The notes below the pieces were generated by a model that saw only the letters and a list, made by a program, of their open reading frames with translations, did not search any database and was not told where the DNA came from. A program made the translations under genes and the position numbers. A DNA stretch of 63,747 bases, the filler included, from Folioceros fuciformis (lineage: Eukaryota), in the NCBI GenBank assembly GCA_049999805.1. It is 6 parts of 6 records of this genome, joined end to end, with 100 filler letters (N's around TTAATTAATTAA, not from the genome) between each part and the next. Parts side by side here need not be neighbours in the genome. Positions count along the whole stretch, not along the records: positions 48,897 to 58,980 come from JBNGIO010005795.1; 5 more parts are not named here. One strand, 5' to 3'. Of the stretch, positions 10,761 through 62,239 are shown piece by piece (the first letter of the stretch is position 1; each line of letters opens with the position of its first letter).

Positions 10761-10873
10761 CGTTGTGCCACCCCATAGTGCGGGGTGCCTCCCCCAATGC
10801 CAAGGGTGTGGCATGCCAGGCCGCGCTGTGCGCGGATCGCGGCCGCGGGCACGAGGCGGAGGGATCAGGCCTC

Positions 10874-10953: not shown

Positions 10954-11357
10954 CCTGGGCCGCCCTAGCCCAGCTCTTAGCCGCCTGGTGGTGCAGCCAG
11001 ATCCGGAGCCCCGCAAGCATCCACGGGATGGTCTAATCCGGGTCGCTTGGTGGTGTGGCTGGATCCAGAGATGCGGGCGGCCAGATCTCGATCGCAGGGC
11101 AGGATACTCCAATCGTTAGCGATCGAATTTTGGCCGCAGACGGTCGGATTAGTCTCCCAACGCCAGGCGGGCCAGAATCGGGCTTGGGCCCATCATGTTG
11201 GCTTGAATTGTGGACAGGCTCGTGCGATGGTTCGAGGTCTACAAGTTGTGTCAGCCGATGCGGAATAAGGCGTGATTACCATAAGGGTAACTTTCAAAAT
11301 CTACATTATATTCAGACCGTTTCTAACTAGCTTTTGTTTGATTTGCATCGATTTTGA

Positions 11358-12535: not shown

Positions 12536-12828
12536 TGTTGAGTTATCAAGCTCTATATGAGCTAAACTCATGTGGTGTTAGTTATCCCAGTTGGGTTCAT
12601 ACTAGACTAGTTCTAGTTATTAGTGAACTTAGGATAGTGTAGATTATCCCATATTGAACTTGGAAGTTGTGTAGCCCTAAATGTACTACTTAAATGGAGA
12701 CCTCGGACCTCCATAGTAAGACAGTGGTGATGTGTATTGTTTTCATGGTTGTGATCACCAATACCACCCTCTCTTCTCTCCTCTCCTCTCCTACACTTGC
12801 ACGTAGACTGGAGTCGATCCTATTGACA
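12536..12828 (+). mobile_element. 5' LTR of nested Ty1/copia element (TG...CA, 293 bp)
   Basis: Starts TGTTG where the host pol frame breaks; ends TTGACA immediately before the PBS. Confidence 0.85.
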
Positions 12829-12840
12829 TGGTATCAGAGC
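12829..12840 (+). other. Primer-binding site (tRNA-iMet)
   Basis: TGGTATCAGAGC directly after LTR CA. Confidence 0.92.
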
Positions 12841-13391
12841 CCGGTGCAGGCGGTGCAAGATCGGCGTAGGAGGTGCTGCAAGAGGCAGCAAGAGTGCACA
12901 CCAGAAGCTAGAGCAGCTACGAGAAGTTGGAGCAGCTTGGAGGGAGATCGGCAGCAAGCGTCCCGACAGCTAACTCTCATATCGGTGTGTGCAGGAAGTG
13001 AGGAGAAGGGCGACAAGGCCTTGTCAACTTATTGGACTAGCTGTTGATCCCCAGAGCTCTGTGGAAGGGCTGACAAGTGGAGGCAACAGCTGCAATAGCC
13101 TCAGCAGCTGCAAGAAAGTGTGCTAACCCTAGCTTGGCAGCAGGGAAGGAATTGACAGGAAATCTCACGGGAGCTTTGTGGGTAGACAGTCAAGAGTCTG
13201 TAAGGACATGGAGCATGAGACAATCTGGTTCACGCAAGGCAGCGTGATTCCGCACCAGATTGCTCTTAGGAAGAAGAGACTTAAGGTCTTGTGAGTAAAA
13301 CTCTAGTCAGAAGCAGTCTGGTTCTTTCAGACATTTATCAGGTGTGAGTACTCAAGAAAGGATTGAGTGTCAACCTTGAGTGGTGGCAAGA

Positions 13392-16266: not shown

Positions 16267-16366
16267 NNNNNNNNNNNNNNNNNNNNNNNNNNNNNNNNNN
16301 NNNNNNNNNNTTAATTAATTAANNNNNNNNNNNNNNNNNNNNNNNNNNNNNNNNNNNNNNNNNNNN
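16267..16366. other. Artificial contig spacer (N44-TTAATTAATTAA-N44)
   Basis: Six-frame stop linker; identical spacers at 21555, 48797, 58981, 62140. Confidence 0.95.
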
Positions 16367-16825: not shown

Positions 16826-17010
16826 TGTAGGCGCAGCATAAGATTGTAGTCTTGTGTCAAGTTACACACGTTGTCATACGCGTAGGCGCATCATAAGATT
16901 GTAGTCTTGTGTCAAGCCTACGCATCATAAGATNNNNNNNNNNGTCTTGTGTCAAGCCTACGCATCATAAGATTGTAGTCTTGTGTCAAGTTAGACACGT
17001 TGTCATACAC
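16826..17010. repeat. Tandem repeats of GCATCATAAGATTGTAGTCTTGTGTCAAG in a probable copia 3' LTR
   Basis: About four copies around a 10-N gap; candidate LTR start TGATA at 17095(-) after purine tract AAATGGGAG. Confidence 0.7.
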
Positions 17011-17920: not shown

Positions 17921-18705
17921 GGTCTCATCGTGACCAGTCACTCACACACATCACATCTCGTGCACCCCACACACATTACACACNNNNNNNNNNNNNNNNN
18001 NNNNNNNNNNNNNNNNNNNNNNNNNNNNNNNNNNNNNNNNNNNNNNNNNNNNNNNNNNNNNNNNNNNNNNNNNNNNNNNNNNNCAAGTGCACGCCGCGCT
18101 CTCCTTTCTCTGGTTCTTCAGTCTTCTTTCTCCGCGATGCCCCCTCCTGGGCTCCAATTAACGTTGAGGAATGGTGAGGCACCGGAGCTAAGGGAAGGGG
18201 AGTCCCTTCCGCTCCACACTCGCGGATTCGGCTCCGACACCCACACCACCCCACGTGACCACCTCGAGGATAGCTGGGGAGCTTCTCTCCCACTCGGCGA
18301 GGCTCCTCCCCCTGATTCGTCCCCGGACCTGATCACGGAGTGCCCACCACCGACACCCGCACCCCTGGTTACTACGTGCGCTTGCTTGCCTGGACCTCCT
18401 GTCCAGCAACGGCCATCGCTAGGTCCCAGGGGCAAGGTTGACTGTTCAGCTGGTGCTTGCTGATTCCTTAGGCCTCCAAACCGGGCTCTTATACACGGTG
18501 ATGGCAGTTTTTCCGCCATAAAGTCTGTCAGGCAGGGGAGCTGCACTCTTAAATCCTGAGCAACTTAGGTTCAAATAAAGCACGCTAAAAAAAATCCTAT
18601 TCTAGCCTGCATTTACTGTCGCTGTTTCCCACGCCGCTGGCGGCTTCCTCCTGGCCTTCGCGTGTCGCCCCTTGCTGTTCCTCCTCTCGCTCTTCTGCCC
18701 CTCCG

Positions 18706-21554: not shown

Positions 21555-21654
21555 NNNNNNNNNNNNNNNNNNNNNNNNNNNNNNNNNNNNNNNNNNNNTT
21601 AATTAATTAANNNNNNNNNNNNNNNNNNNNNNNNNNNNNNNNNNNNNNNNNNNN
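21555..21654. other. Artificial contig spacer
   Basis: N44-TTAATTAATTAA-N44. Confidence 0.95.
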
Positions 21655-36212: not shown

Positions 36213-38256
36213 TTATTTTCTCTATAATACCTAGTTAATTATAAAAAAATCTCCCTCCTGATCGAAGCATTAACAAATGTGCTGCCTTGCTTGTCCTGGC
36301 CCCGAGCAATGGTGATAGTGGAGGGAATATTTGAGGTGCAAATGGTGGAATGTGTGCAAGTTTCTTTTATGGTTTCTTTCCTAAATAACAGATCACAGAC
36401 AGGACCACGACCAAAGCTCGTCTCCACTTGTCATGCCTTACGCTTCGGCAGCGAGACGAAACAAATTTGCAAGCAAGTTAGTATGATGATTAGTTGGACT
36501 TCACATCTTCCCAGTAGGAGTCACACTCGTCAGGAACTGCATGTTTAGGGATATCGGCATACAATCAGTTCTGAATGTCGGAGGGACGTGATTGGTTGTT
36601 TATCTTGTCAGGCATAAGATTGAACAGGCCATGGCCGTCCAGGACACCGCACAGGTACATTAGTTTTAGCTTGTGTCGCATGAACTGGAACGCACGGTGA
36701 GGGAGAGCGTCTGGTTTTGAGTCGACTCGTCATGCTGACGGGATTAGAGTGGAAGNNNNNNNNNNNNNNNNNNNNNNNNNNNNNNNNNNNNNNNNNNNNN
36801 NNNNNNNNNNNNNNNNNNNNNNNNNNNNNNNNNNNNNNNNNNNNNNNNNNNNNNNGCATGATGCTGGACCGCAGGAGACAAAGAAAACCGAAAGCTGTCG
36901 AAAGGAGTCGACCGTGACCTCGCCTTGCGCCTTCCTCTGTGGTGGTCCTAATACGCAAGAACATTCAGCTCCCCAGGAAGGATCCCTGCAGGAACACGCA
37001 TTCCGAAAAGGGAGAGCTCCAGACCTTTTTGGAGTATAACACCTCACCCGACCTAGTGACGCCACTACCTCTTTTTTAGGACTTTGTTGTCCCCTACCTC
37101 GCCGTCCATCTGTTGTCCTGACTCAGGAGATTATGAGCACTCAGCCACTTTTATCCAGAGACGAGTGGTCATCCCCCAAACTGTGCTACACATCACAGAT
37201 GTGAACAGCGATCCGGGATCAGGAAGCTCCGACTCAGACGTCACAGACGTCAACCGTGATGTGCGACCTGGCTGTCCTGTAGAAGCAGGCCACGCTTGTT
37301 CCCTCCAGTGAGACCGAGACCGTAAAACTGTCTGTTACACATCTCACGCTCACGCACATACAAACGAATGGTGAGCCGGGATCTGGAAGTCCATATTTCT
37401 TACAAATCGCAGATCTGAACTATTGGGATCTGCATCTGCGAGTCCCAATTAGACAAGAAGTGTGATCTGCATCTAGAGGTCGTGTACACACAATTACGAC
37501 ACCCTGGTTTCCTCCAGCGAGACCGAGAGTGCCTGTGCTCGAAACCGTCTGTCAATCATCCATTCCGAAATCGTCAGCAAACACAGACACGGAGCAGCCG
37601 AGCAGGGCCCTTGTGATCCAATAACTCTTCTCAAAGGCCCCGGTTCGTGGGTTTAGGATGTCTGGCCGTACTGAAAGTCCGGCCCGATGCGTCGTGCTTC
37701 CCTTTCCCGAAAGGCTGCCATGGATGAGGCTGCCTTTCGTGTAAGGCTGCCATGGTTTCTGTTCCGGCGTGCCTCCCGCTTTCAGCGAAATTTCATATAG
37801 GGTTTCCGGTGCAGAGCAAACCAGAGCACAGCAGGGCCATGTGAAATTCCTGATGACCTAATTGAAAGAATCAAATCAATCAATCCATCGATTTCCCATG
37901 CCCATATACATATGTATGCCTGTATATATGGATGCATGTTGTCCATGTATGGAGGTGGGTTACAGCATGGTGTGAGCTCCGGAGAAGAGGTCCATGGTGC
38001 GGGTCACCAAACAGGACGCATGAGAAGCACGCTGTTAAGGCTTCTCTTCGGTCGAGGAATCTGCGGGGAAAGGAGACAGTAATCCGGGACAGGCTTGCAT
38101 CGTCCTTCTGGGATTCACTCAACAGCGCGGGAAATGACGTCTCGTGCCACAATAGCATAATCCGCGGGTGGGCTATGGCAGAACTCCCTTTTCCTTTACC
38201 CTTCCCGCTCCCGTGAGCCTCCCTAAGCACACCCGGATCATCAGCTACCTGCAGCC

Positions 38257-41691: not shown

Positions 41692-42818
41692 TTGGGTCCA
41701 TGCGTCACGCAGACAACAGCATGGCTGGCACAAGGATGCCATGGGCGGCCCAGATGGCATGGCCATGCGTCCTGCCTGGGCTCCTTCCTCCGTATCTGTC
41801 ATCGTCCCTCCTCGTGATGTGTGGCATGCGATATGTAAGAAACACATGGGGACACATGTGTGGAGAGCCGGGATAACGGCAGGCTTAGCGGGTGCTCGAG
41901 AAAGCCCGATTCGGGCGGTGGAAATAAGCGAGTTCGGATAAGTGTGGCGCCCGGTTGGGTGGGTGTAAGCGCGCGGCACAGATCACGGGCAGGCCGACCC
42001 GGCCTCAGTCCTAGCCTGCTTGGGCCGGCTTTGCCCAGCCCGGCGTGGCCTGGCCTGGCCCAGCCCTGCCCGACCCGCTCTTTTCCATTCCCCTCGATCT
42101 CTGTTATGTCGGCGCCGCTCCACGTCCTGCTGCGTTGGAGCCTTTCTCTCATGGCCGCGGTAGAGAACTTACGACTGCAGCTGCCGCTGCCGCCCGCTTT
42201 GGCCTCCTCTCGCGTCTCCTGACCCCACGCTGGCCTCCGCATTTGCTGCAGCTTGCCTCGCCACTTCTCCTTCCGGCCGTGTAGGGCTTGCCTTTCTTCA
42301 ACAAGTACATTTCATACATACGTGCCTCGTCCTTCTTCCTCCCCCTCCTCCTCCTCGCGCTCCCGCACGGTGTGCCTTGGTTGTCCTGCCTCCTCCATGC
42401 TATGCTGGGCTGGCTTGGCCACTGTGCCCCTCACCAGCAGCAGCAGCAGAGGCAGGAGCACCAGCAGCAGCTTCCTGCCTGGAACCTTCGTCCGCTTTTT
42501 CTCCTCCCTCTTCCTCTTCCTCTTCCTGTTGTTCATCTTACCCTAGCTCCACCTCGCAGCTCCGGCAATCGGTGGAGGAGGCACCAACGGCGGCACCGTA
42601 ATCGGACAACAGCAACATCGGGGGCAGGCAGTGGCAACGCGAGCGCAAGCAGTGGCCGCCGCAGGACGAGCCTGGCATGGAGGAAGGTAGGGGGATGAGG
42701 GCCACACGTGCGGGGACAGGTGAGTAAGCAGTGTGCAAGCGGCGCGCGTGGCGGAGGGAGGCGGCCCCCAGCGCATTCATTGTTGGAAGCTCCTGGGGGA
42801 AAGGAGCAGGGAGCGAAG

Positions 42819-45800
42819 ATGATGTCCACCACGAAGGTGACGTACTCGTCGGCCAGCTCGGCCAAGAGTAAGCACAGTGTGCGGGTGGCGCAGACGACGG
42901 CGGACGCCAGGCTGCATGCGGTTTTTGAGGAATCCGGGGAGTCGCGGGACTCGTTCGACTACTCCAAGTCCATCGACGCCAGCAAGAGCACAGGGGACAG
43001 CGTGCCCGCGCAGGCGGTGACGGCGTACCTGCAGCGCATGCAGCGCGGGGGGCTCACGCAGTCCTTCGGATGCATGATTGCCGTCGAGGAGGGCAGCTTC
43101 AAGGTGATAGCGTTCAGCGAGAACGCGCCGGAGATGCTGGACCTGATGCCGCAGGCGGTGCCCAGCGTGGGCCAGCAGGCGGTGCTCGGGATCGGGACGG
43201 ATGCTCGGTCTCTCTTCACGCCGGCCAGTGGGACGGCCCTGGAGAAGGCGGCGGGCGCCATGGATGTATCCTTGCTCAACCCCATCTCCGTGCACTGCAA
43301 GAGTTCCGGGAAGCCCTTCTACGCAGTGGTGCACCGGATCGACGTGGGCCTTGTGCTGGACTTCGAGCCGGTACGGCCCACGGACCTGTCTGTTTCTGCT
43401 GCCGGGGCTCTCCAGTCGCACAAGCTGGCGGCCAAGGCCATCTCCCGCCTCCAGTCCTTGCCCGGTGGAGATATCGGGCTGCTGTGCGACACAGTGGTGG
43501 AGGAGGTACGGGAGCTCACTGGATACGACAGGGTTATGGCTTATAGATTCCACGAAGACGAGCATGGAGAGGTGGTGGCGGAGATCCGGCGCTCAGACCT
43601 GGAGCCGTATCTCGGGTTGCACTACCCGGCCACCGACATCCCGCAGGCTTCTCGCTTCCTCTTCATGAAGAACAGGGTGCGCATGATCTGCGATTGCTTC
43701 TCCCCGCCGGTGCGGGTGGTGCAGAGCAAGCAGCTGCCGCAGCCGCTGAGCCTGGCCGGCTCCACCCTCAGGGCGCCCCATGGCTGCCATGCCCAGTATA
43801 TGGGCAACATGAGCTCCATTGCATCTTTGGTCATGGCTGTCATCATCAATGACAACGATGAGGACTTCAACGGCAGGGGGTACCAGCAGAAAGGTAGGAA
43901 GTTGTGGGGTCTGGTAGTGTGTCACCACACAACGCCCCGCTCAGTCCCTTTCCCCCTTCGCTCGGCCTGTGAGTTTCTGATGCAAGTCTTCGGTCTGCAG
44001 CTTAACATGGAAGTTGAGCTGGCTGCACAGCTGAGGGAAAAGCACATTCTCCGCACCCAGACCTTGCTCTGTGACATGCTCCTCCGAGATGCCCCCATTG
44101 GGATTGTGTCCCAGTCCCCCAACATTATGGACCTTGTCAAGTGTGATGGAGCTGCACTCTATTATGGCAAGCGATTCTGGCTGCTGGGCACCACTCCCAC
44201 CGAGGCACAGATCAAGGATATTGCCGACTGGCTGCTGGAGCACCACAAGGATTCTACGGGGCTCTCCACCGACAGTCTAGCCGACGCCGGCTATCCTGCA
44301 GCCGCCGCTCTCGGCGACTCCGTCTGCGGCATGGCTGCCGCCAAGATCACCCCCAAGGACTTTCTCTTCTGGTTCAGGTCCCACACCGCCAAGGAGGTGA
44401 AGTGGGGCGGGGCCAAGCACGATCCGGATGACAAGGACGATGGCAGGCGGATGCACCCCCGCTCCTCGTTCAAGGCCTTCCTGGAGGTGGTGAAGCGCAG
44501 GAGCTTGCCTTGGGAGGATGTGGAGATGGATGCCATCCATTCGCTACAGCTCATTTTGCGGGGCTCCTTTCAGGATATTGATGACAGCGACACCAAGACC
44601 ATGATTCATGCACGTCTGAATGACCTTAAGCTGCAGGGCATGGATGAGCTCAGCACTGTGGCCAACGAGATGGTTAGGCTCATCGAGACTGCCACTGCCC
44701 CGATTTTGGCTGTGGACGCCAGCGGTTACATCAACGGCTGGAATGCGAAGGTGGCTGAGCTTACGGGACTCCCCGTCGCAGATGCAATGGGCAGGTCTCT
44801 GGTTAAGGATTTAGTGCTGGACGAATCTGTGGAGACCGTGGAGCGCCTCCTATATTTGGCTTTGCAAGGTAGTAATGCACACGACTCTTCCCGTGCCTGC
44901 TGCTCGCAATGCATTTCCTTTTTGAGGTGTGAACGTACCTTCTTGCAACACGAAAAGAGTAACCGGACGTCTATGCAGGGGACGAGGAGCAGAACGTGGA
45001 GATAAAGCTGAAGACTTATGGCGTGCAGAAGGACAAGGGTGCTGTTATTCTTATCGTCAATGCATGCTCTAGCAGGGATGTGACGGAGTGCGTTGTCGGG
45101 GTGTGTTTTGTGGGCCAAGACGTGACAGGGCAGAAGGTTGTCATGGATAAGTTCACGCGCATACAGGGGGACTACAAGGCTATCGTTCAGAATCCCAACC
45201 CGCTGATTCCGCCCATTTTCGGCTCCGACGAGTTTGGTTATTGCTCCGAGTGGAATCCAGCCATGGAGAAGCTCTCGGGCTGGCGAAGGGATGAGGTTAT
45301 GGGAAAAATGCTCGTGGGGGAAATCTTCGGCACGCAGATGATGTGTTGCAGGCTCAAGGGTCAGGATGCCATGACTAAATTTATGATAGTGCTGAATGGG
45401 GCAATGGATGGTCAGGACGCAGAGAAATTTCCCTTTGCCTTCTTCGACCGGCTGGGGAAGTATGTAGAGGCGTTGCTCACTGCCAGCAAAAGGACGGATG
45501 CGGAGGGAGCTATCACAGGTGTCTTTTGCTTCCTCCATACGGCCAGCGTGGAGCTGCAACAGGCTCTGACTGTTCAGAAAGCCACTGAGAAGGTTGCATT
45601 CGCCAAGTTGAAGGAGCTGGCGTATATCCGGCAGGAAATCAAGAACCCTCTGTATGGGATAATGTTCACCCGGAATCTCATGGAGGATACGGATTTGTCA
45701 GAGGATCAGAAGCAGTTTGTGGAGACGAGTGCTGTTTGTGAGAGGCAGCTAAGGAAGATTCTAGATGACATGGACCTCGAGAGTATCGAAGATGGGTAAT

Positions 45801-48796: not shown

Positions 48797-48896
48797 NNNN
48801 NNNNNNNNNNNNNNNNNNNNNNNNNNNNNNNNNNNNNNNNTTAATTAATTAANNNNNNNNNNNNNNNNNNNNNNNNNNNNNNNNNNNNNNNNNNNN
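48797..48896. other. Artificial contig spacer
   Basis: N44-TTAATTAATTAA-N44. Confidence 0.95.
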
Positions 48897-49181
48897 GGTT
48901 TGTCCAAAGCAGTCTCCACAAAACAAAACAAAACCAATAGTCCACCAGCGGTCAATGATTCTCCATGCATGGTGCGTCCCCCACTCTATGATAAAAAACA
49001 CATGTGCCAACGGCGTGGTTGCAGCAGCTCTGAATTTGAAGAAAAACTCATTAACAAACAACTTGAAGATAAATAACTCACGACTGATTATCAAAGTGTA
49101 GCTTCATCCACTGAGTTATCTGTTCTCCCATGTATTATGTGCCATTCACATATGCTGAGTAATCACCTAGCCCTAAACCAT

Positions 49182-52100
49182 TCATATGCTTATAGTGTTT
49201 TTTGGCTTTGAAAGTGCTTTGGTTAGAATGTCGGCCACATTATCATCTGTTCCAACAAAACTAACCTTTGTCACCCCTCTATCCACAGCATCCCTGATGT
49301 AGTGATGGGATATCTCTATATGCTTGTTGCGTGCGTGGAAACGAGGGTTAGCAACCAAAGCAAGTGCTGACATGTTGTCACAAAGTATGGGGGTAGGATC
49401 CTGTTGTGTCTACCCCAAGTCTTGTAAAAGCCTCCTCTCCCATTCAACCTCCTTGGTGGCTTCAGTGATAGATTTATACTCTGCCTCCGTCGAAGACAAA
49501 GATATGGAGGGTTGTTTCTTGCAACTCCAATTGATGGCAACTCCTGTAAGAAGAAAGCAATATGTGGAGAGGCTGCGACGAGAGTCAGCATCAGACGCCC
49601 AATCGGCATCTGTAAAACCTTGTAGAATGAGTTTAGCCTTGCCACTACACTTATATATGAGCCCATGTGTCAAAGTGCCTTTTAAGTATCTGAAAATATG
49701 CTTGACAACAACCCAATGAGCCCTGCCCGGATGTTCTAGAAACTACGACACTGTGCTTATAAGCATGCTGAATATCTGGTCGGGTCCAATTCACCACAAA
49801 AATGAGACTTTCGACAGCGTGTCTATGTGGAACATCCTGCATATCCAACTGCTCCTCTAGGGTTTGCGCACATTGAAGACTAGTGAGCTTCACACCCATA
49901 GCAGTTGGAGTAGTGGCTGGTCGTGCCTCATCCATATGAAACTTAGTTAAAATTTCCTTGATGTACTTGTTTTAATGTATGGCCATCATCCCATCAGCCC
50001 TCACCAACTAGATCCCTAAAAAAACTTCAAGTCACCAATATTCTTTATTTCAAATTTGTTAGATAAAAGCTGATTGACATGTTCTAAAAGGGTCTTGTCA
50101 TTTGTGGCTAATATTACGTCATCAACATGTAAAGCCAAAATGACGTATGAGGAGACTTGGGTAAGCATATATATATTGGAATCAACAGTACTTTGTACAA
50201 AGTTAATTTCCAATAAGTAAACATGCATGGTAAAGTACCATACTCTACCAGATTGCTTGACACCATAAATACACTTGAGAAGTTTTAAACTTTGTTGGGG
50301 TGTTTAGAATCAACATACCCCTCAGGTTGTTGCATATAAAGTTCCTCCTCAAGCTTGCCATACAAATACGCTGTGCAAACATTCATTTGATGCAGATACA
50401 AATCATGTTCCGTTGCCATAGCAAGTAACATCCTAATGGATTGAGATCTAACCACATGACTAAATGTCTCTTGATAATCTAGGCCTTCAACCTGCGTGAA
50501 TCCCCTAGCAACAAGTCGAGATTTATAACGTGCTATCTCTCCTTTTGAGTTGAGCTTGTGCTTGAAAACCCACTTGCACGAGATGGGTTTTCTGCCAGGT
50601 GGCAAATCCACTAACTTCCAAGTATTGTTCTTGATCAAGGATTGATACTCATCCTCTACTGATATGCTCCACTTGTCACCATCAGAGCCAAATAGGGCTT
50701 GCTTCAAACTGATTGGCTCATCAGGAATGACAGCAGCAAGTGATGTGGAAGTATTGCAAAAATCTATAGACTCATAGGGGGGCTCAATTCACTCGGCTCT
50801 AGGTGGTCTTTGGCGGGTGGATCTGCACAACTCGGGTTCTGGTGGAACTTCTACAACCTGTGGCGATATGACGTCTGGCTCTAAGGCAAGTTCATGGTCA
50901 TCCTAAATAAGGTTAGGAACTACATCTTCCATGAGAGGTTCAGGGTCATGTGTAGGGTCAGGCTGGATATCCTGTGCATCTAAAATAGGCAGAGGGTTAG
51001 CTGGCAACTCATCATCTTGTGGATACACAGCAGGTACCTCATTAGTGTCCTGCTCATCATCATGATCAACTAATGGATGTGCTCCCTCTACTGTAGGATG
51101 TGCTCCCTCAGGTCATAGAGCTTGTATGCCTTGGCAGTCTCGCTGTATCTGACAAAAACAAGGCCCTTTGCTCTCATGTCAAGCTTCCTCCTCTTTTCGG
51201 AAGGGATATAAGTGAATGCCTTAGCTCCAAATACTTGAAGATGCAGTAGGCTAGGTTTACGGTTCCATAATACCTCATATGGTGTCCTTCCATGTACAAC
51301 ACTAGTGAGCACCCGATTAAGAATGTACGTTGCAGCAACTACGGCCTCTGCCCAATATCCTTGAGGGAGACCTGCCCAAAGCAGCATACTCCTTGTCATT
51401 CCTAACAAAGTTTGGTTCTTGCGCTCGACAACTCCATTCTGTCGTTGAGTATAGGGTACAATCAGCTGACGTTGAATGCCATGTTGTGCAAGGTACTGGT
51501 CGAAAGCAGCGTTGACAAATTCTGTCCCATTGTCCGTGCACAGCAGTCTAAGAAGATGACCAGACTGTCGTTGGGCAACTAGCAACCATTCATGGAAACA
51601 AGTGAATGTATCACTCTTCAACTGCATAGGAAAGGTCCATGTATACCTACTATAGTCATCGGTCAAGCATAAGTAGTAACAAGATCCTCCAAGTGAAGCC
51701 TCATGTATCTTCCAAGATATGCCTGCATGGACCAGCTCCAATACTTGTGATGCCCTATGTGCAGGTGCGTTAGGGAAAGGAGCCTCCTTCTTCTTGGCAA
51801 GGATACATGCTTCGCAGACTGTAAGGTCCTTGAAACACTTGGGTAGGGGTTCTCGAAAACATTCCTAGTTGGACATGTCCACCAGCTTTGCTCGGTTGAC
51901 GTGTCCGAGGCGAGCATGCCACAATGCAGCCAACTTCTTCTGGTCCATGTGAGTACTCCCTGTGGAACATACTGTATGAGTAGGCTTGCAGTTGATGTTC
52001 AACTTGTACAAGTCGTTAACTACCACCCCCTCGAAGGCACAGATGCAAGGTGAATCTGCCTTGCTAAAGGAACAAGGCACCTGGTCAGCTTGCATAAGAA

Positions 52101-53395
52101 GAGCATGCGACTTCAATAGTCTGCTAAGTGACATCAAATTCTTCGCCATCCCCGGGATGTACAATACCCTGTCAAGGGTAAGCTCTGTGTTGTCCGACAG
52201 GATAAAGGTACACATCCCATGCCCTCTGATCTGCAATCCAGTCTCAGCCCTCTCATCTCCCAACAACACTTTCTCAGATACCCTGAGCAGATGCAGATGT
52301 GAAAACTGGTCCTTGTCCATACAAATATGTGTAGTTGTTCCAGAGTCTAGATACCAACTGGTACTATCCCTCGTGGAGCTAGACTGCCTAGGCAAACAGT
52401 ATAAATCTTCATAGTAGATTTATCATGGTCACCTCCAGACTTGCCTTTCATTGCCATGCTGGAAGTAGGTTTGGGTTGGCGCTGCGGCTCGCCTGCCTTC
52501 TTCTTGCAGCAGTCATGGGCCCAGTGCCCAGCTATCCCACACCAATTACAATTCCCTGTCCTTTTAGTGGAAGAAGATCCAAAGTCGTTATCACGCTGAC
52601 CGGACCCTTGAGTCTTCCCTTTAATTTTGTTCAGCTTGAACTTCACAGCCAAAACCCTTTCACTCTTGTGTTTATGTCCACCTGACATAAGCTGCCAACT
52701 TTGCTCCTCCTGGTACAATGTGCCAATAGCATCCTCCAATGTTCGGGTGTTGGATGTTGTCGCAGCACCAGGTCCTCGCGTAAATGTCTGAACTTGCTTG
52801 TAAAAACTGCAACGTTATCAAACTCCTTCATCTTAAGTGTGAACAGCTCCTGTCTAGCAGCACAAAGGGCCATCTGATTACGCACTCGGTATGTTTTCTC
52901 AAGCTACGCCCAGATCTCATGAGCCTTGAGCAAATATTCTACATTTGGAATTAAAACAACATCCAAACCACTTATGATTAGCGCTACAGCAAGTTCGTTG
53001 GCTGAAGTCCATTCGTATAGGAGGGTTTGTTGAGCAGCTGAAAGTGTAGTTCCTAGGGCTACTGCGGCTGGCTCCTTGCAAGTCCCATTGACCACAGTCC
53101 ACACTTTCCTAGTGACAAGAACAACCCTCATCGGAACACGCCAAATGTGATATTGGTTACCATTAAATCTATCCTTTTCTTTTAATTCAGATATTGAAGA
53201 GGAGGTAGATGAGATAGACATGTTTACGTGAGTGTTGGAATTTGTGCTATGTGATGATGGTTGTGCTTGCTGTTGTGCTTTTCTTTTATTTGTCTTAGGT
53301 GTGCTCATGTGTACTCCCAGAAGAGGATCGTCATCTGACGAGCCTGAATCCTCTTCGTGCTCAAAATCAAAATCCCTACCTCCAAAAAATGACAT
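49182..53395 (-). pseudogene. Degenerate full-length Ty1/copia gag-pol
   Basis: Gag (RFNGNQYHIWR), CNWCGIAGHWAHDC, WYLDSGTTTH, WHARLGH, QNGVVERKN, SCKWVFK, HVDDVI, GFTDADWASD, NVADILTK; many frameshifts and stops. Confidence 0.93.
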
Positions 53396-54849
53396 ACAAT
53401 GGCTCTCCCACTAGACTGTCTAGGTGAAGAAGCAGCAAAAAAAAAATATGTACCTTTTTTTTTAACAGGATAAATTCAAAAAATATTTTTTTTCTTTTTT
53501 TTGGGAGAAAAATAGGTTACTGATTTATTGATTTGCTGTGCAGGAGGCTATGGTGGAGTCATCAGTTTGGAGGAGGGTAGATTGCTATCTGCCCGACCTC
53601 ATACTAATAGCTACTACATTGCTTCTTGGCATACATAAAATTAGGGAGCAACGGAAAACTGTGACAAGAGAGAAAAAAAAAAAAAAAAAAAAGCAAGCAA
53701 GCAAGTTGTGCATCACGTGAAACAACAAGAGGAAACACCTCCTCATGAAACACAGTGCTCACTCATGCAGCGAAAAAGGCTGACAGCACAAGAAGAAAAC
53801 TTGCCTGGTATCAATCCTTTCCAACAGCTTGCATGAATTGAGAAAAGTAGAAACACAATGAAAACTTAGCGCCGCTCCAAGAGATCATATAGCATCGGAG
53901 CGGCCAAGGTTTGTGCCGGGGAGGACCCAAGCAATGCTTGTCACAAGGGATCAATCAGCAGCGTGCCTTCCTTGCAAGAGTCTGCCTGAAAAAAAACACC
54001 TGTATGGCAAAAAACGAGCACACTACCACCTATGATCCACACACACTGCACCCGCACCAGATCCATAAACCTAACTGTCACATGCCGAGTCCGAAAAATG
54101 CACGCACCGCACCAGATCCCAGTAGCGTGCCCCTCCTTCTAACTGTCACGGGAGCATCCCGCCAGAGGCTGATGCCAAGGCCAGATCAAACACGCCAGTT
54201 CAAATCTCAGCCTCCCCCTGCAGCGGAAGCAAAAAAGCTACGGGGATGAGGCACCACCATCTCTAGTGGTGCCCAGCATCAAATCTCCAAGTAAAAAACG
54301 CAGTGCCTGGCTGATCCGAGCTCCTGCCTATGTTGCACCCGACTCGGCAGCCACCTGGTCCTTCACCTTTTGGCCGGGGCTCAATCCCACCGAGCACGGC
54401 AATCTGCAAGAAAAGCATGCTCTTGCGCCGCTCACCTGATCACTTCCTGCACCTCCATCACCCGGAGCCACCGTTCAAAGAAGGGGCTGTGTGGATGGCA
54501 GGCTGTACAAGCAGCACGGGCCGGGGTAGGGTAGAGATCCTCTCAGGAGCCGCATCTCTGTGACAAAAATAAGTATCTCTAGGGATAAATGCTTTCCAAG
54601 TAGCCTAGTGTGGTCTAGTGGTCTCAGAGTCGCGTGTTCCATAGGAGGTTGCGGGATCGAATCTTGCTGTGTGCTTGCCTCCACTCTGCATGTATCTTAT
54701 GCGGCCAACAAGATCTTCAACCTCGTAATCAGGATCGCATTCTCAAATCAGATCTAGCTTCTTATCGAAAAAGATCGGATCCAGCTTTTTATCGAAAACG
54801 TTGTTATGGGATCCGGGAGAAAAACGCCCACGGGAGCGATTTCCCCTTC

Positions 54850-55057
54850 CATCCCGTCTTCAGATGTAATCCCGCCTAGGCATTTGCTAAAATCTTATGT
54901 GGCTGGTGCATGGCTCTGATACCATGTGAACGGTGTGCAAGATGTGGAGGTTGCATCCCGTCTTCAGATGTAATCGTGCCTAGTCATTTGCTAAAATCTT
55001 GTGTGGCCAGTGCATGGCTCTGATACCATGTGAACAGTGTGCAAGATGTGGAGGTTG
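54850..55057 (-). repeat. 104-bp tandem duplication containing two PBS/LTR junctions
   Basis: GCTCTGATACCA (reverse complement of PBS) at 54913-54924 and 55017-55028, each followed by TGTGAAC. Confidence 0.9.
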
Positions 55058-55210
55058 TGCAAGCGGTTGTTGCCAAAACTAAATGAACAATACAATAATA
55101 CAAAATGTTTACAAAAATGTGTTTATATACTCATGACCTAGAGTCATGTTATTTCACTTCGACTAAACATATTTAATCTAAATTAAATATATATAACCCT
55201 AAGTGTGACA
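55029..55210 (-). mobile_element. 5' LTR (~182 bp) of the copia element at 49182-53395
   Basis: Minus strand TGTCAC...TTCACA abutting the PBS; AT-rich TATA-like interior. Confidence 0.7.
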
Positions 55211-55217
55211 GAGCTTG

Positions 55218-57060
55218 TTATCTTAACATTCTATTTTGAACTACACTTTGAAGAAGAGATCCTGAGCCTATGAATGCATCAACCACCCAGTTGCCCTTTG
55301 AAGAAAACATGTTAACTAGCATACTCATCAACCCCAATAGGTTATGATGCGAAGAGACAACGTGAGCATCTACAAAGTGAAATAAGTGCTTCTTCACCAC
55401 TACTCAATGTCTAATAACCCATGGTAGAAGACATCCTTGATTCGCGAATAGAGGAGCCTTGGACTCATGTGCCTCGGTCTGCACAGCATTGCCCACAGAT
55501 AAATATTCAACTGTCTCAACTACCCTTGTGTTTGGGGGTATATTTGTCTTCTCCCATACCAACGTCTAGATACTTCCCTTCTTGCACCATGGATTTAGTG
55601 CCTCACTTGCTTGTGTAATAAGATCTACTTTATGCATGAGAACATTGCAAACATTGCTTGAGGTGCATCCATTAAATCCATAAATCATTTCATCCATCTT
55701 TGCGCTAGTCATTTGCTCGTCATACTCATGTTGCCGTAGGCCATGGAGCAAGTCCGTAAATGGTATATGGTTGTCTAACCAGAAATGCCTTCATTTCCAT
55801 AACATTCCGATGAATAATTAGATATTTTATCTTCGTGTTACTTCCTGAGACTATGAGGTCAGATAAGCATGCATCCATATCTGCATTGGCAAGTTTTGTG
55901 CTTTTCTTCCTCCATTCTCTTCCAATTCTTCGCCGAATATACAAAATCTTAGAAGGGTTTTGGCAAGGACTCCAAGTCTGTAATATTTGTTGGTTTTTGC
56001 ACTCATAAATGATTCTTTCATACTATCTCTAAGCAAACACGACAATTTATTAGCAATCACACAATATGGCCGGCCAGCGCTAGAGTGCCTCAATAGACCA
56101 GCGCACTCTGGCCGGCCAGCTCTTGAGTGAGCCAGTAGATCGGCACACTTGGGCTGGCCAGCACTTGAGCGAGGCAGTCAATTGGCGCACTCCAATAAAC
56201 CAATACACAAGATAAAGCTTACCACTCTGGTGAATGTTCGTTGAAACTTGAGCAGATGTCCATCCTCAATATATTTGGGAAACATTTCTTCAGCCTCTTC
56301 AGGTGTCAAGCACTTCATTGCGATACTGAATGCATGCTAGATTAAATTGATCTTTGTTTTTCTTGCCTACCTCAGTGTCCATATCCTTCAAATGGAGTTT
56401 CCCCTATATTCCTATCTACAATTAACATCTCCTCCCCCTTCACACCACATGAAACTCCTTGAAAGGATCTCCAAGGCCTTCCTTGCATTGCTACAGCCTT
56501 CTTATTGCTATCTTCTGATACCTGCATGCTGTAACTTGGATTTGCAATGTAACTTATCTTTCTCTTTGCCTTGGCTCTTTTTTTGGTGCCTGCGCTAGCC
56601 ATGTTGACCTCTTCCGGCAATTTGCACTTCTCTCACATCTTGAAAATCCTATTTGCATTGTCCCACAGCACTCCATTGCACCTCGCCACTATGTAAGGTA
56701 GTGAATGCCTGTTAATCATTTTCTGTTTCCATTCTATGTCATGTGGATCTTCGCCTTCGTCAGTCATTCCTAGCAACCCGTAAAGGTTGAACTTCCACTT
56801 CATAGGTGGCTTCTCATCAAGAGAATGGGTTCAGGAAAAGATCTTGAACTCATCATGAATATACTTGACCTGCTCAATGAAACCCATTCTTTTTCTCTTG
56901 TCCGCATACACATTGTGGTCCACTGCCAGAACCCTCATTTTCTCATTTGTAAGGCTAGCATTAACATGGCCCTCAATCCATTCGTATTTGTCTTTGATTG
57001 GAAACATCTGGTGTAGTTTTGCATGGTTGCAAAACAATGGTTCCCTCCCAACACACCCTT
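55218..57060 (-). pseudogene. Disrupted ParB-like domain plus beta-class DNA amino-methyltransferase (N6_N4_Mtase-like) gene
   Basis: Across frames: VLGGNH (GGNH at 57048-57037), LTNEKMRVLAVDHN; then LIIHRN, FTDLLHG (motif IV-like, 55760-55740), TLVWEKTN, ETVEYLSVG, LMSMLVNMFSSKGNWVVDAFIGSGS (motif I, 55280-55260). Confidence 0.75.
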
Positions 57061-57192
57061 GTGATATTGTTGGGTTGTAATACTATCTTAGGAGACGTCC
57101 TCCTTCTTAGCTGCCTACTTAGGTGTGGAGTGAAATCTTGTGTCCAGAGACACCGTGAGGTTCACATTCACCCTCTATGTCGTTGTAGTCGT

Positions 57193-57657
57193 GCCAATCC
57201 TTCAGTTCCTCTTCTGTTGTCAGCAAAACTTGCTCAATCATTCCCCTCATCACCAGCCGCCGAGCAAAGCTCTCGACCACTCCTAGGAGCTTCTTGCACA
57301 CACTACCCACCCAAACCAGACATCTCCAATCCAGCCACAAGGAGTGCAGGGATCTCAACCGGGAAGATGTCAGACACTCCAAATTTCGGAACACATCTGG
57401 CAGTTCAGGGAATGAGGGAGGGAGGAGCTTTTGGATGTCACAGCAGACGTTATGAGCAAGCTCCAGACCCACCCTACGCCAATCCTTCAGCTCCTCTTCC
57501 GTTGTCAGCAAAACTTGCTCAATCATTCCCCTCACCACCAGCCGTGGAGCAAAGCTCTCGACCACCCCTAGGAGCTTCTTGCACACACTACCCACTCAGA
57601 CCATACGTCTCCAATCCAGCCACAGGTAGTGCCGGGATCTCAGCCGGGAAGTTGTCT
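57193..57657. repeat. Diverged ~180-bp direct repeat (period ~285 bp), probably retroelement-derived
   Basis: GCCAATCCTTCAG...GTCAGCAAAACTTGCTCAATCATTCCCCTCA...TCTCCAATCCAGCCACA at 57193 and 57478. Confidence 0.85.
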
Positions 57658-57796
57658 AATTAGAGAGGCACCAACAAGCTTCTTCATACGAAGTTTGCAG
57701 AGCGGGTGTCACAGCCCACCATAAAGTCCAGATCTTAAAACAATCAACTTGAAAGGTGCCCTTAACTATGGGCGGCATCAAGTCTCAAGACAGCAT

Positions 57797-58180
57797 CTAG
57801 TCAAATCTTATTTGAATTCTATTTTTAAGATGCAATAACTCCTGGCCTACCTTAGCGCCGTGCCATCCTCCTATCCGTCCTTCTAGCCCTGCTTCCTCTG
57901 CCATCAAATCCCCAAGCTGCTGATCAGGCAAATCTTCTAGTAAATTTTTTTCATCACTCCCTCTGCTTGCTGACCTCTCCTGGCTGGGCAAGGGTGGGGC
58001 CCGCCTTGGGGTCCCCTCCTCCTCTACTAACCACCTATTCCTAAGGACCAGCACAAGTTCTTCCTTCACCCAAGCATGTGCCTCCTCTTCCGTAAGCTCC
58101 TTCAGGACTGCCCCCGTATAACAAGGGGTTAGTCCCCATACCCGCACACAATGGATGAAGCATCCATTCCTGGTCCTCAC
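57797..58180 (-). pseudogene. Fragment of the accessory ORF C-terminal domain
   Basis: RTRNG...VWGLTPCYTGAVLKELTEEEAHAWV...LRN...EDLPD aligns with RTRLG...VTGLPHCYAEAVLEEQTEEEAQRWV...LSN...EDLPN at 18706-19104. Confidence 0.7.
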
Positions 58181-58325
58181 TTGCAGACGATAGGCCCTGG
58201 TCTCTCCCCCTCCTCTCGTGGGTTACTGTGGAGTGATTTCTTGCACACCCAAGAACCACCAAGGGGCCACACTTCCCCTTATTATCGCTGCAGTCTTATG
58301 ATTCGCTCCCAAGGGACTGAACTAA

Positions 58326-58429
58326 TGTCAAGGTTACCTACATCTCCCTAATCTCACCCTATCTATTAGCATATACCTAGTGCTACCGCAATAAGTCAGA
58401 ATTCTCGGTCTTGTCTTCGGCTCCTACCA
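58326..58429 (+). mobile_element. Start of TGTCAAGG-type LTR, interrupted at 58430
   Basis: Inverted homolog of ~5920-6024. Confidence 0.7.
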
Positions 58430-58980
58430 TGTGAACCTCCAAAGTTTGGGGTAGTAGTTTGTTTTGGTTGAAAAAGGGTTAACCCAGGCCATAGGGTTGG
58501 GTGATTAGTTTAATATTAATTAAAGATATATAATATTAAACGATTAAATAATAATATAATAATATTAAATAATAAAAATAATATAATAATGAGTATTTTA
58601 TATGGTTTAGATACGTATTTAATACATACTAATACATATACCGCATACGTATCCCCGTATTTCTTTTTTTATTTTCCTAATTTCCCCTTTTCTATTTTCA
58701 TCCCTATTTTTCTGGATTTAATTCCAGAAATTCCAATTCAACTCACCTGCTTTCTTCTCCTCCTAGTTCGGGGCCTCCCCCAGCACCCCAAGGTCAGTCT
58801 TCTATGGCTGAGGAACCATTTCGGCTGGAAGCTGATTCCGCTGAATAAGCTACCGTTTTCAGGCCAGGTTCCGGCTGCTGATCCCACTCCTTCCCACCTC
58901 CTCTCTATCTTTCCCACTTCTCATACTCCTCCCCTGGAGGCTGGCTCAGCCACCAAGGGTGAACAGTTGCAGGGGAAGAC
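58430..58980 (+). mobile_element. TGTGAACC-type gypsy LTR, same family as 541-934
   Basis: TGTGAACCTCCAAA...GGGGTAGTAG...CCATAGGGTTGG...GTGATTAGTTTAATATTAATTAAAGATATATAATATT matches the reverse complement of ~600-934 with deletions. Confidence 0.8.
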
Positions 58981-59080
58981 NNNNNNNNNNNNNNNNNNNN
59001 NNNNNNNNNNNNNNNNNNNNNNNNTTAATTAATTAANNNNNNNNNNNNNNNNNNNNNNNNNNNNNNNNNNNNNNNNNNNN
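58981..59080. other. Artificial contig spacer
   Basis: N44-TTAATTAATTAA-N44. Confidence 0.95.
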
Positions 59081-61700
59081 ACTACCTGGAATTCGTGTGC
59101 CAGCTGTCGGACTCTGCGTCGCTGCCTACCAAGCTCTCAGCAGCCAGTCAGGAGGCAGGATGGCCAGGCCAGTGGCCAGCTTGCTGACTAGCCAGGCCGC
59201 CGCAAGCCAGCCTACTCTGCCCGCCTGGCAGCTGCGATTGCCAGCTTGCCCTGTAGCCGCTATCTGATCAGCCTTCCTACTAGCTTACCCCGATCGAGTT
59301 GGCCTGCTGTCTGGGTTCGATTCGCTTGCACCAGCCTGGATGCGCGACCTCCTGCTTGCCTGGATCTAGCCGTCCCCCGCCTTGATCCACCACCCCCCTG
59401 ATCTAGCCGTCTATCCACCGTCGCCTCCCTAGATCCAGTACACCTGCGGCCTGGAGTCTGGCTGCCTGGCCATGCTTCAGCTAGCGCTCCAGCAGCCTGT
59501 TTACTTGCCTGCGTCCCTGACTCCTTGCAGAATTCCAGCAAGTTGGCCTGCCTCCGACCAGCGCCCGCCTTAGCCAACCGCCGAATCCACCTCCCGCTGC
59601 CAGCTTAGGTTCGGTCCACCTCCAGCCCGCCCAGTCCGCTCCAGCCCATCCACAACTAGCCGATGGCTGCGCCTACCTGCGGCCTGGATCATGCCGAGGC
59701 CTGCCTGGCCTAGATTTCCCTCCTAACCAAGTTCCCCCCGGCCAATCAGCCACCTGCCATGCCGCCTGCGAGGCTTGGCTGCTCCTCAGCAGCTGGCCGC
59801 TGCCGGCTCGACCACCTGCCATGCCTGTCTCGTCCAAGCACTCAACTTGCTGGCCCGCCTACCTAGCTCCAGAATCGGCCAGCTAGCCAGCCCCACCGCC
59901 TAGCTCAAATCTGCCTCTGCCGATCAGTCCAGTTGCTGGCAGACCTGGATCGCCTGACTTCAGCTGCCTGCCATCCCGTCAGACCAACCCAAATCTAACT
60001 TTGCCGTTTTACCACCCCGTCTGAATCCTGCCTCACCGCCGTTCGACTTCCTCCGATCACAACCAGCCTAGCCTGAAGCATTGGCTAGCCTGCCCCGCTT
60101 TAGCCAGGTTGCCGATGGGCCAGGGTCTAGCCAGTCGGCCTGGCTACCCGATTCTACCTCACCAGCCACAAGCAGCTGGGCTGCTACTGGCCTACGGTTC
60201 TGGCAGCTAGCCCATTGAATTCTCCAGCCACCGGCCCCGCCAGCCACTGCCGGCTGTCTACCTGCAGGGTCACTTGTCATCAGCTGGCACGTTGGCTGCC
60301 TGATGCCTGGTTGCAGCCCGGTTGACCCCCTGTGTCACTTCGATCATGGGGCAGCCAGGCCGCTAGCTAGCCACAGCCCAGCCAGCCGACCAAACTGCTA
60401 GACCCCCCGTGGCTCGCTTGATCTAGTGCCGGGTTACCTGCCTGGACTCCAGCCAGCTTGCTAGCCCCGCCGACCTGCTGCTGATCAGTCTAGGTGCCTG
60501 CAAGCCGGCTTGCCTTGCATCCTGATTCTGGACTGCCACAGCCCCGGAGCTGATCCTGACGCACCGGTCCTGCAACCAACCTCATCCACGCCGGCCACGC
60601 CTCGGTGCTGCCTCTAGCCTGGCCTGCTTCTAGCTCCGACCTCGTTGCTCTGCTCCCAACTGTGACCAGCCAAGCCGCCCGATCAGCCCGTCCTAGCTTG
60701 GCGTTGGCGGCCGCATCCATTTGTCACCTGGCCCGCCAGCCAACCAACCAGCCTTCCGGATCGACCAGCCGATCCACCTCCAGGGTGCCTAGCTGCTGGC
60801 GGCCCAGTCTGCTGGCCCTCCACCTGTGGTCATACCCGCCAGGACATCCTTAGTCACCAAGCCCTGCCCGATCGACAGGCCCGAGGCCCTAACCTCTCGA
60901 TCCAGCTAGGCAGCTCACTACCCGGCTTCTGGATCCTACCACGCCACCAGCAGGCCAGCGACTACCTGGTTATGACAGCCAGGTGGCCGTTGCCTAGATT
61001 CTACCCAGCCCGCATGCATCCGTCCCAGGCTCACGGTTGTCGAGACTCCTCAGCGGCCCGTCACCTTTCTTCTGCCTTTTGCCTGGACTTAGCTTGGCTG
61101 CTCTGCCTCTGTGGACTCCCAAGTCATCCAACTTCGGCCAGCCCGGCCGGTCTTGGTCGTCGGGCTGCTGGTCCAAACCCGGCCAGCCAGCCAGGCCCCC
61201 AGCCTCCCTGGCCTGTTCTAAGCTCTAGCTTGGTCTATTGTCAAGCCTGGCTGGATCCACCAACCGGCCTAAAGCCTGGACCTGCAGGATTGCCTCCCAT
61301 CAGCCCGGGTTGGACTGCTGGTTGGGTTCCAGCAACCCCGCCTAGCTGCCTACCTTGCCCCCTCCAGCGCTCCAGCGGCCTACTCGGCTGATTGCCTCGC
61401 AGCTCCGGCCTGGACCCCGGCCTGGGTCTGGCCATGCAGCCTGCCAGCAGCCAGGTCGCCTACATGGCTGCTGCCTACTCCTCCCTCGGCCAACCGGCTG
61501 CCTGGCCGCCCAACTGGATCTACCAACTAGCCTGGCCAGATCAACCAGTCGGTCTCCTATACCTTCTGCCTCAACCGCCACTTCCCGGTCTCGCCCAGGT
61601 CAAGTCAGCCGTCCAGTGTGGCTAGCCGAACAGCCGGCCCATTCCTCATCCAGCTACCCTCAGCCTACTTACCCTTGGCCTAGGAACCAGAGCCCACGTC
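59081..61700. repeat. GC-rich low-complexity tract (GCCAGC/GCCTG/GATCC-rich), likely retroelement non-coding DNA
   Basis: Composition mirrors the reverse complement of 3257-4300; no recognisable protein. Confidence 0.55.
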
Positions 61701-62139
61701 CTATCCACCACACAACCTACCTACCCTATCGACTCACCCTCACTCTAAGCTACTATTCTAACCTAACCTTCCAACCTTTCCTCTACAACACTCACTCACA
61801 AATCCCAAAAAAATGAAAACCTATCATTTCCCAGGCGTCTGTTCAGCATGTGGAGTCCACAACCTTGTGTGTAGGCTGCTGGGTTAGAGGTTTAACCTAG
61901 TGTGCAGATGTGCCTCGGCCTTGATTCCCCATGCCACTAGGGGAACGTGGCGGCTCCCAAAATCGTCGAGATCTAGGTGGCCAGATCCGTAGGGGCTGAC
62001 CTTTCTTGCATGCTGGTTGGGTGGTTGGGGTACCTTGATGTCCCTAAGGGGTTTCTGTGGAGGCAAAACCCCGGGCACTGATTGCCGACGGGTTCCACCT
62101 TTAGTGGCCACACTTATCCCACTGTCGTTGAGACATTGG

Positions 62140-62239
62140 NNNNNNNNNNNNNNNNNNNNNNNNNNNNNNNNNNNNNNNNNNNNTTAATTAATTAANNNNN
62201 NNNNNNNNNNNNNNNNNNNNNNNNNNNNNNNNNNNNNNN
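62140..62239. other. Artificial contig spacer
   Basis: N44-TTAATTAATTAA-N44. Confidence 0.95.

Follow-up and report, generated by a model that had tools for sequence, protein, structure and literature searches.

Bacterial-type amino-methyltransferases have been described in a number of eukaryotic genomes, and the available portions of the reports characterise them as follows. Marchantia carries the beta-class enzymes MpDN4MT1a/b with a TSPPY motif (10.1101/2021.02.12.428880), the rotifer enzyme N4CMT has introns and a C-terminal chromodomain (PMC8885841), and the adenine methyltransferases borne by eukaryotic transposons are of the Dam type with Asn-Pro-Pro, are found in DIRS or long terminal repeat (LTR) elements and are given as absent from Streptophyta (10.64898/2026.05.21.726589). 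Land plants as a whole show few N6-adenine (N6A) methyltransferases in the consulted part of a 2015 survey (PMC4738411). Here we report a locus on the minus strand of a stretch of 63,747 nucleotides from Folioceros fuciformis (assembly GCA_049999805.1), which was analysed in its entirety and is called the window below. The interval 56011-55236 is very probably a dead, intronless pseudogene belonging to a rare and divergent beta-class (circularly permuted, Pfam N6_N4_Mtase) amino-methyltransferase-like lineage of bacterial or phage ancestry. The stretch that is certainly contiguous with this relic is 48897-58980 (JBNGIO010005795.1).

The pseudogene was delimited with a profile of four intact relatives (P0005-P0008, described below), which was compared with the six-frame translation of the window. 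The best match has 48.4 bits (E 2e-16) and lies at 55730-55245, corresponding to positions 110-280 of the 341 in the profile and including two in-frame stops. On the whole, the homology extends over profile positions 9-282 in three colinear pieces, spread over three frames with 2 frameshifts and 4 in-frame stops. The N-terminal piece (56011-55883, minus strand, profile positions 9-51) contains two in-frame stops, has 14 of 43 residues identical by a manual count from the profile alignment, and occupies a third frame that the initial annotation of this DNA had not used. It is followed by a segment ahead of motif IV, KIKYLIIHRNVMEMKAFLVRQPYTIY (55833-55756, minus strand, profile positions 70-95), which reaches E 1.8 alone, is colinear with the other pieces, and is separated from each of them by one frameshift; within it, 55827-55759 is matched in tblastn by residues 63-85 of P0007 and 75-94 of P0008. 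The methyltransferase-like core (55763-55236, minus strand, profile positions about 96-282) then runs in one frame, interrupted by TAG at 55566-55568 and TGA at 55404-55406. This is in accordance with the initial annotation, which had given 55760-55218 as one frame with only two internal stops: we find the frame as 55790-55218 with these same TAG and TGA codons. The peptides quoted there are likewise all present at their positions in the list of minus-strand open reading frames, KYLIIHRNVMEMKAFL and KYLIIHRNVMEMKAFLVRQPYT being located in a second minus-strand frame that overlaps 55790-55218. The pseudogene ends just past motif I. The C-terminal 60 or so profile positions, which hold the block VAA..RNV.AVD.DP in the relatives, are gone, and the family profile finds nothing similar to this block elsewhere in the window in six frames. 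Since the spacing of the three pieces fits an uninterrupted gene, we take the copy to be intronless, and since one stop falls inside a conserved block (GSI-stop-TLVWEKTN), the breaks are not introns. Such a copy presumably does nothing now.

The relatives were obtained with the relic itself as a query. When 1.84 billion cluster representatives are searched exhaustively by phmmer, five match at E<=0.001. Three of these are true relatives, and two (P0003 and P0004) were discarded as artefacts, being long repeat proteins that lack PF01555. The three relatives are P0005 (446 residues), P0006 (185 residues) and P0007 (323 residues), with E values from 2.6e-5 to 7.7e-5, identities of 26-35%, and most of the query covered. 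They pass the Pfam profile PF01555 with 30.0, 56.4 and 50.1 bits, respectively, the gathering cut-off being 26.7 bits. Of 8000 candidates scored with a profile made from these three, 20 match at E<=0.001. Among them is one new close relative, P0008 (E 1.6e-72), and the other 16 are bacterial-type methylases, in which 14-24% of the query is matched, around motif I. Three of the four close relatives pass the Pfam threshold, and P0005-P0008 are the only close relatives found among the 1.84 billion representatives. For the relic, a read-through of 191 residues (P0001) scores 22.3 bits (E 1.4e-4) against PF01555, in the motif I region only, and the six-frame scan gives 17.2 bits. When the four relatives are searched back onto the window by tblastn, they are significant only at 55236-55827, with E values from 6e-12 to 2e-4. 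Judged by these comparisons of sequence, the methyltransferase resemblance is far above chance. In phmmer, the relic has a sole, irrelevant match among the PDB sequences (E 1.1). Conserved among the relatives are motif I, the PYQKP block and CVWxKTN, and their own short N-terminal region is also a feature of the family: P0005, P0007 and P0008 open with methionine a few residues ahead of the motif that maps to 56011, and none of the three has a ParB domain in Pfam.

The order of motifs is that of the beta class, with motif IV before motif I, as had been proposed at the outset for a decayed gene of the N6A/N4-cytosine (N4C) type; hhalign, an alignment of 19 sequences and the family profile all agree with this. 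The motif IV consensus of amino-methyltransferases is (D/N/S)-P-P-(Y/F/W). The relic departs from it with D-L-L-H-G (gac ttg ctc cat ggc, 55754-55740, minus strand), the relatives have D-L-P-R, and some of the bacterial matches have D-I-P-Y. In the MAFFT alignment of the 19 sequences, motif IV is DLPRG in all three relatives covering the site, DLLHG in the relic, and DPPY, or SDIPYG in four, in the bacterial sequences. Further downstream on the same strand, DAFIGSGS (55280-55257), the S-adenosylmethionine binding motif I at Pfam profile positions 170-196, agrees with the loop D/E-x-F-x-G-S-G and aligns with DPFxGSGS of the bacterial matches, so that the permuted order is satisfied by two motifs that align to DPPY and FxGSGS. 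Between them, TLVWEKTN (55565-55542, minus strand), with the in-frame TAG directly before it, corresponds in the alignments and the family profile to CVW(H/E)K(T/I)N of the relatives and to LIWVK of the bacterial enzymes, and GSI-stop-TLVWEKTN needs no gap in its alignment with GSVSTCVWEKTN of the relatives. The PYQKP block is degraded to SHHNL in the relic, and SHHNL, VWEKTN and motif I all come after motif IV as in the beta class. An hhalign comparison of two bacterial ParB-methylase fusions with the family plus the relic gives a probability of 97.8% (E 1.2e-12, 225 columns), and in this run LLLTDPPYNVN is aligned with LLLLDLPRGLN.

Two places illustrate the decay of the relic, namely QGD to HRN and DLPRG to DLLHG. 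The latter needs two transitions, ccc (Pro) to ctc and cgt (Arg) to cat, and these would be the C-to-T and G-to-A changes expected in methylated repeat DNA. The initial annotation had suggested that DLLH could derive from DLPY. Because a single transition likewise separates cat from tat (Tyr), an ancestral DLPY keeps its place as a possible source, and DLPR, found in all three relatives that cover the motif, is the better one. The ancestor would have bound S-adenosylmethionine and nucleic acid. With arginine where a base-stacking aromatic residue would normally stand, it may have methylated through an altered catalytic loop, or it may have been a non-catalytic binder. In addition, a subgroup of bacterial-type PF01555 proteins (P0012, P0013, P0014 and P0023) shows S-D-I-P-Y-G followed by IG(M/A)(D/E)DWDV. 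This subgroup is closer to D-L-P-R-G-L-x-(M/L)-D than the DPPY enzymes are, and it is a possible donor group.

Structural and database comparisons point to bacteria and phages. Against PDB sequences, the family profile finds 17 chains at E<=1, of which 11 fall below E 0.01. These 11 are beta-class DNA methyltransferases without exception, each matched over the motif I region only; they include TTHA0409 (the best, E 6.4e-8), DpnA/M1.HpyAVI, the rotifer N4CMT (8s9m, E 5.2e-5), M.RsrI, M.MboIIA, M.BceJIV and CcrM. The beta-class fold was tested on the relative P0007 in place of the relic. Its AlphaFold model, made from a 19-row alignment, has a predicted local distance difference test score (pLDDT) of 61.9, with 80-89 in the core, and a predicted template modelling score of 0.64. 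The top Foldseek matches of this model are CcrM, M.BceJIV, M.MboIIA, M1.HpyAVI, N4CMT (E 1.4e-10), TTHA0409, M.RsrI and M.PvuII, with E values from 7e-13 to 8e-9, and every one of these is a beta-class DNA methyltransferase. In PHROG, DNA methyltransferase families match P0005-P0007 with up to 70.8 bits, and NCBIfam likewise gives DNA methyltransferase families; the relic and P0008 match no family of either collection. Searches of larger collections return distant methylases only: 15 loci in IMG/VR (the best with 52% identity over about 52 residues, the longest with 28% over residues 101-312), two loci in the JGI metagenomes (26%) and one in prokaryote genomes (30%). With P0007 as a tblastn query, 470 phage records are matched and none of them covers 80% of the protein. 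A protein language model places phage PF01555 clusters nearest to P0005, at 0.94, which is a lead only. Overall, the profile, PDB, PHROG and phage-record searches bear out the bacterial and phage affinity first suggested for this locus, as the nearest relatives outside the family are bacterial and phage enzymes.

We then consider the region upstream of the pseudogene, where the initial annotation had placed a ParB/Srx-like module. The list of open reading frames shows, at 57082-56372 on the minus strand, a frame that spans 237 codons and is broken by two stops. No ParB family is found by Pfam at E<=10 in either frame of 56830-57087, and the six-frame Pfam scan of 53411-57102 gives nothing at E<=0.01 except the weak N6_N4 match. 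Two ParB-methylase fusions compared with the upstream frame by hhalign reach a probability of 0.2%, and three custom profiles, made from the N-termini of 2, 4 and 6 ParB-type fusions, have no match near the region at E<=100 with filters off. A frameshift-aware join with X at the break scores from -1.6 to -0.9 bits, values reached by 74-196 of 300 shuffles. The arginine of the G-x-x-R box is missing as well: the window has EGHVNA and LGGNHCF where GHGR or GGNMR would be expected, and for comparison GHGR is present in P0016 and P0017 and GGNMRYR in P0018. By eye, EGH...LTNEKMRVLAVDHN of the window resembles GH..LTDEQQKAYRLIHN of P0016, a short likeness without the GxxR arginine. By all these measures the ParB-like resemblance at 56830-57087 is no better than chance, and the proposed module is dropped. 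The initial annotation had itself named the absence of a ParB-like match at 56830-57060 as grounds for refuting it. Because the relatives start just before the position equivalent to 56011 and have no ParB domain, the upstream frame falls outside a protein of the family type. It is a separate decayed orphan reading frame, not ParB. For this frame (P0025), the word-indexed protein collection yields no homologue (41 candidates at near lengths, none scored; 151 longer, none), tblastn against 50,697 phage records matches nothing at E<=1, and none of the families in Pfam, PHROG or NCBIfam fits. That the frame is so open speaks only weakly for its having once coded, since stop-poor stretches of this length are not rare: of the 126068 windows of 237 codons in the DNA analysed, 8112 have two stops or fewer. 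A peptide in it, I-A-N-P-S-Y-S (56534-56545, minus strand), was compared with bacterial DPPY by hhalign, obtained a probability of 0.2%, and was set aside as chance.

Contigs from sequencing runs labelled as the same organism were aligned to the locus at 80% likeness; the three sets, X1, X2 and X3, come from one sample, which may be the source of the window. X1 gives 133 contigs, with 2 at least 99% alike, 1 at 95-99%, 29 at 90-95% and 101 under 90%. X2 gives 122, with 4 at least 99% alike, none at 95-99%, 27 at 90-95% and 91 under 90%. Portions of the methyltransferase-like gene as well as of the upstream frame are covered by these contigs, which pile up on the bins that hold motif I, the VWEKTN block and 56736-56927. 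A single contig, present in X1 and X2, lies on both 55842 and 56558; a joint between the two would be in frame if direct, and a fusion is not claimed. A further run, guessed to be RNA, has no contig at the locus, which speaks neither for nor against expression. These results show that both parts have diverged look-alikes, with at least one more case of linkage between the two, so that the locus is one among several diverged copies in this organism. As look-alikes of both parts occur on same-organism contigs, we assign the locus to a repeat family. No carrier element is found, the candidates being a transposon, a viral insertion or a duplicated gene cluster. As a separate observation, X3 contigs differ from 55539-57060 of the window nearly only by G>A; in three pieces, the G positions affected number 69 of 99, 62 of 88 and 36 of 45. 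We read this pattern as a bisulfite-type library seen from the minus strand, and by this reading the 20-30% of positions left unconverted exceed the number of CpG sites and would indicate methylation beyond CG.

Several other explanations deserve to be weighed against a methyltransferase-like pseudogene standing beside a separate orphan frame. The initial annotation suggested one decayed gene of phage or prophage type, in which a ParB/Srx-like part was fused to an amino-methyltransferase over 57060-55218. Proteins of this type do occur among the distant matches of the family profile (P0016 and P0017, with PF02195 and PF01555), their methyltransferase domains align with the family, and the likeness by eye between EGH...LTNEKMRVLAVDHN and GH..LTDEQQKAYRLIHN of P0016 would be on the same side; however, the Pfam, six-frame, hhalign, custom-profile and shuffle comparisons are all without ParB signal, the GxxR arginine is missing (EGHVNA), and P0005, P0007 and P0008 open with methionine just ahead of the motif equivalent to 56011 and have no ParB domain, so a single fusion protein is highly improbable. 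A live gene whose stops and frameshifts are artefacts of introns is extremely improbable. GT-AG-like dinucleotides can be seen by eye around 56372, 56325, 56213 and 55845, but the TAG at 55566-55568 lies inside a block that aligns gap-free to GSVSTCVWEKTN, the other three stops are also within aligned blocks, the colinear pieces keep the spacing of an uninterrupted gene, and residues of the catalytic and pre-motif regions have decayed (QGD to HRN, DLPRG to DLLHG).

Two further explanations concern what the intact gene was and how it travelled, and both carry more weight. The orphan frame and the methyltransferase-like gene may be cargo of a mobile element or of an endogenised large DNA virus, and not a decayed host gene family. 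This is possible, if doubtful. It would account for the many diverged look-alikes of both parts in the organism's contigs, with one contig having both, for an intronless gene, and for nearest outside relatives that are phage and bacterial methylases; adenine methyltransferases borne by transposons or viruses are also known in other eukaryotes, according to the consulted parts of two sources (10.64898/2026.05.21.726589; PMC4738411). Against it, no transposase, reverse transcriptase, integrase or capsid domain belonging to the unit is found, nor terminal repeats or a target-site duplication, the retroelement pieces on either side seem to have been inserted later, and the 15 IMG/VR loci are distant phage methylases only. 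A giant-virus insertion in particular was considered and rejected, there being no supporting domain in the flanks. It is also rather unlikely that the intact members have RNA or protein as their substrate, or lack catalytic activity, in which case the relic would not derive from a DNA-modification module. The arginine of DLPRG, in all three relatives covering motif IV, stands where amino-methyltransferases need an aromatic residue, and the same 2015 survey, in the portion consulted, considers that bacterial amino-methyltransferases acquired by eukaryotes have in several cases turned to RNA as a substrate, and describes METTL14-type partners with degenerate motifs as inactive (PMC4738411). Yet all significant sequence and fold matches below E 0.01 are DNA methyltransferases, and motif I, the PYQKP block and CVWxKTN are kept among the relatives.

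For the pseudogene reading itself and the family to which it leads, the following points count on the other side. The relic alone stays below the Pfam threshold and its membership rests on three or four unnamed intermediates, which share 23-32% identity with it by tblastn, form singleton or near-singleton clusters and are known solely from assemblies of public runs. The N-terminal piece is weak by itself (E 0.009). The alignment behind the P0007 model included bacterial methyltransferases, so the fold match is supportive and not independent, and an earlier model from three sequences had a pLDDT of 37.2 and was unusable. X1, X2 and X3 count as one observation, and their summed depth is no copy number. 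No transposase, reverse transcriptase or terminal repeats belonging to the unit are found. Lastly, the window is joined at five places (48797-48896, 58981-59080, 16267-16366, 21555-21654 and 62140-62239) by 44 N, TTAATTAATTAA and 44 N, an artificial linker with stops in six frames, and adjacency across these joints is unproven.

The surroundings are rich in retroelement pieces. On the 3' side of the pseudogene, a Ty1/copia polyprotein relic occupies 50285-53410 on the minus strand, with RVT_2, rve, SH3_retrovirus, Pol_BBD, gag_pre-integrs and Retrotran_gag_2. On the other side, the upstream frame is bounded by a repeat at 57124-58482 that looks LTR-like, and has inverted copies at 5921-6818 and 881-936 (87-95% identity by blastn; the inverted pair is 182 nucleotides at 88%). 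These copies adjoin a Ty3/gypsy-type polyprotein relic in another piece of the window, 1724-3386 (within 981-4153, minus strand), with RT_RNaseH and Integrase_H2C2. The locus is hemmed in by the LTR-like repeat from 57124 and the copia relic at 50285-53410. Just upstream of the first homologous residue of the pseudogene lies a tandem array of a 42-base unit (56060-56169, 2.6 copies, 76% matches). Two other short repeats are observed nearby, a 179-nucleotide unit at 57193-57371 and 57478-57656 (285-nucleotide spacing, 92%) and two copies of a 104-nucleotide unit at 54847-55057 (93%). No protein domain is found in any frame of 57083-61884. Elsewhere in the window, a second Ty1/copia polyprotein relic lies on the plus strand at 9570-15707 (within 9570-16322), with gag, Pol_BBD, rve, SH3 and RVT_2 pieces, and a neighbouring piece holds a canonical plant-type phytochrome gene (42699-45005, plus strand), a long open frame with PAS_2, GAF, PHY and PAS. 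Apart from the joints, runs of 100 N are present at 17984-18083 and 36756-36855 and of 10 N at 4431-4440 and 16934-16943.

Taken together, these results place the locus, which is dead and surrounded by repeats, in a rare and apparently undescribed variant of a known enzyme family. Having no present function, the locus is of value as a pointer to the DLPRG family, for which no description was found in the literature searched, a search outside which lay the supplementary lists of horizontally acquired plant genes. A wider proposal is that the relic represents an undescribed streptophyte beta-class lineage with a conserved D-L-P-R-G, which together with an orphan upstream gene formed a multiplied plant repeat unit, that is, a module borne by a mobile element or derived from a virus. 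We regard this as unlikely. If true, it would mean a module for modifying nucleic acid, or for mimicking modification, in a lineage where amino-methyltransferases are thought scarce and transposon-borne Dam-type enzymes are reported absent in the consulted parts of the literature. In the same partly consulted land-plant literature, the sperm N4-methylcytosine (4mC) enzyme of Marchantia is the one functional bacterial-type case found, and a second, different beta-class lineage in several diverged plant copies would lengthen a short list. The replacement of tyrosine by arginine, conserved across distant relatives, also raises the question whether intact members write N6-methyladenine or 4mC, use another substrate, or only bind.

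In comparison with known systems, the closest likeness is to the bacterial and phage type II beta-class enzymes (CcrM, M.RsrI, M.MboIIA, M1.HpyAVI/DpnA, TTHA0409 and M.PvuII), with which the locus shares the PF01555 family, motif IV before motif I, the blocks (I/V)W.K, HPT.KP-like (PYQKP) and D..GSGS, and, through its relative, the fold. Unlike these enzymes, which have (D/S/N)PP(Y/F/W) in motif IV, the family has DLPRG and the relic DLLHG; motif I is DGCSGSGS or DAFIGSGS, also unlike theirs, the likeness outside motif I is seen by profile methods only, and a eukaryotic repeat context and the short N-terminal region set the family apart. The ParB-methyltransferase fusions of phages and prophages (P0016 and P0017) are homologous in their methyltransferase domains over 225 columns, whereas their ParB domain is not found in the relic, the upstream frame or the intact relatives. 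Among eukaryotes, Marchantia MpDN4MT1a/b and the bdelloid rotifer N4CMT are likewise bacterial-type permuted amino-methyltransferases. The locus is unlike the Marchantia N4C enzyme mentioned in the initial annotation, with DLLHG (DLPRG in the family) against TSPPY, a distinction drawn from the available description of MpDN4MT1 and not from its sequence (10.1101/2021.02.12.428880). The relic differs from N4CMT, as far as the latter is described in the source, in having no chromodomain and in being intronless, multi-copy and dead. The DIRS and DAM-LTR elements offer a further parallel, since there too, in the consulted part of the report, a prokaryote-derived amino-methyltransferase was amplified with repeats and often left orphan, degenerate remnants. 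In those elements a Dam-type domain lies inside a retrotransposon polyprotein, whereas here PF01555 is the only family matched and the domain is a beta-class one with no linked reverse transcriptase or tyrosine recombinase: domain scans of 53411-61884 find no reverse transcriptase or recombinase domain, and the copia relic adjoining it is separate.

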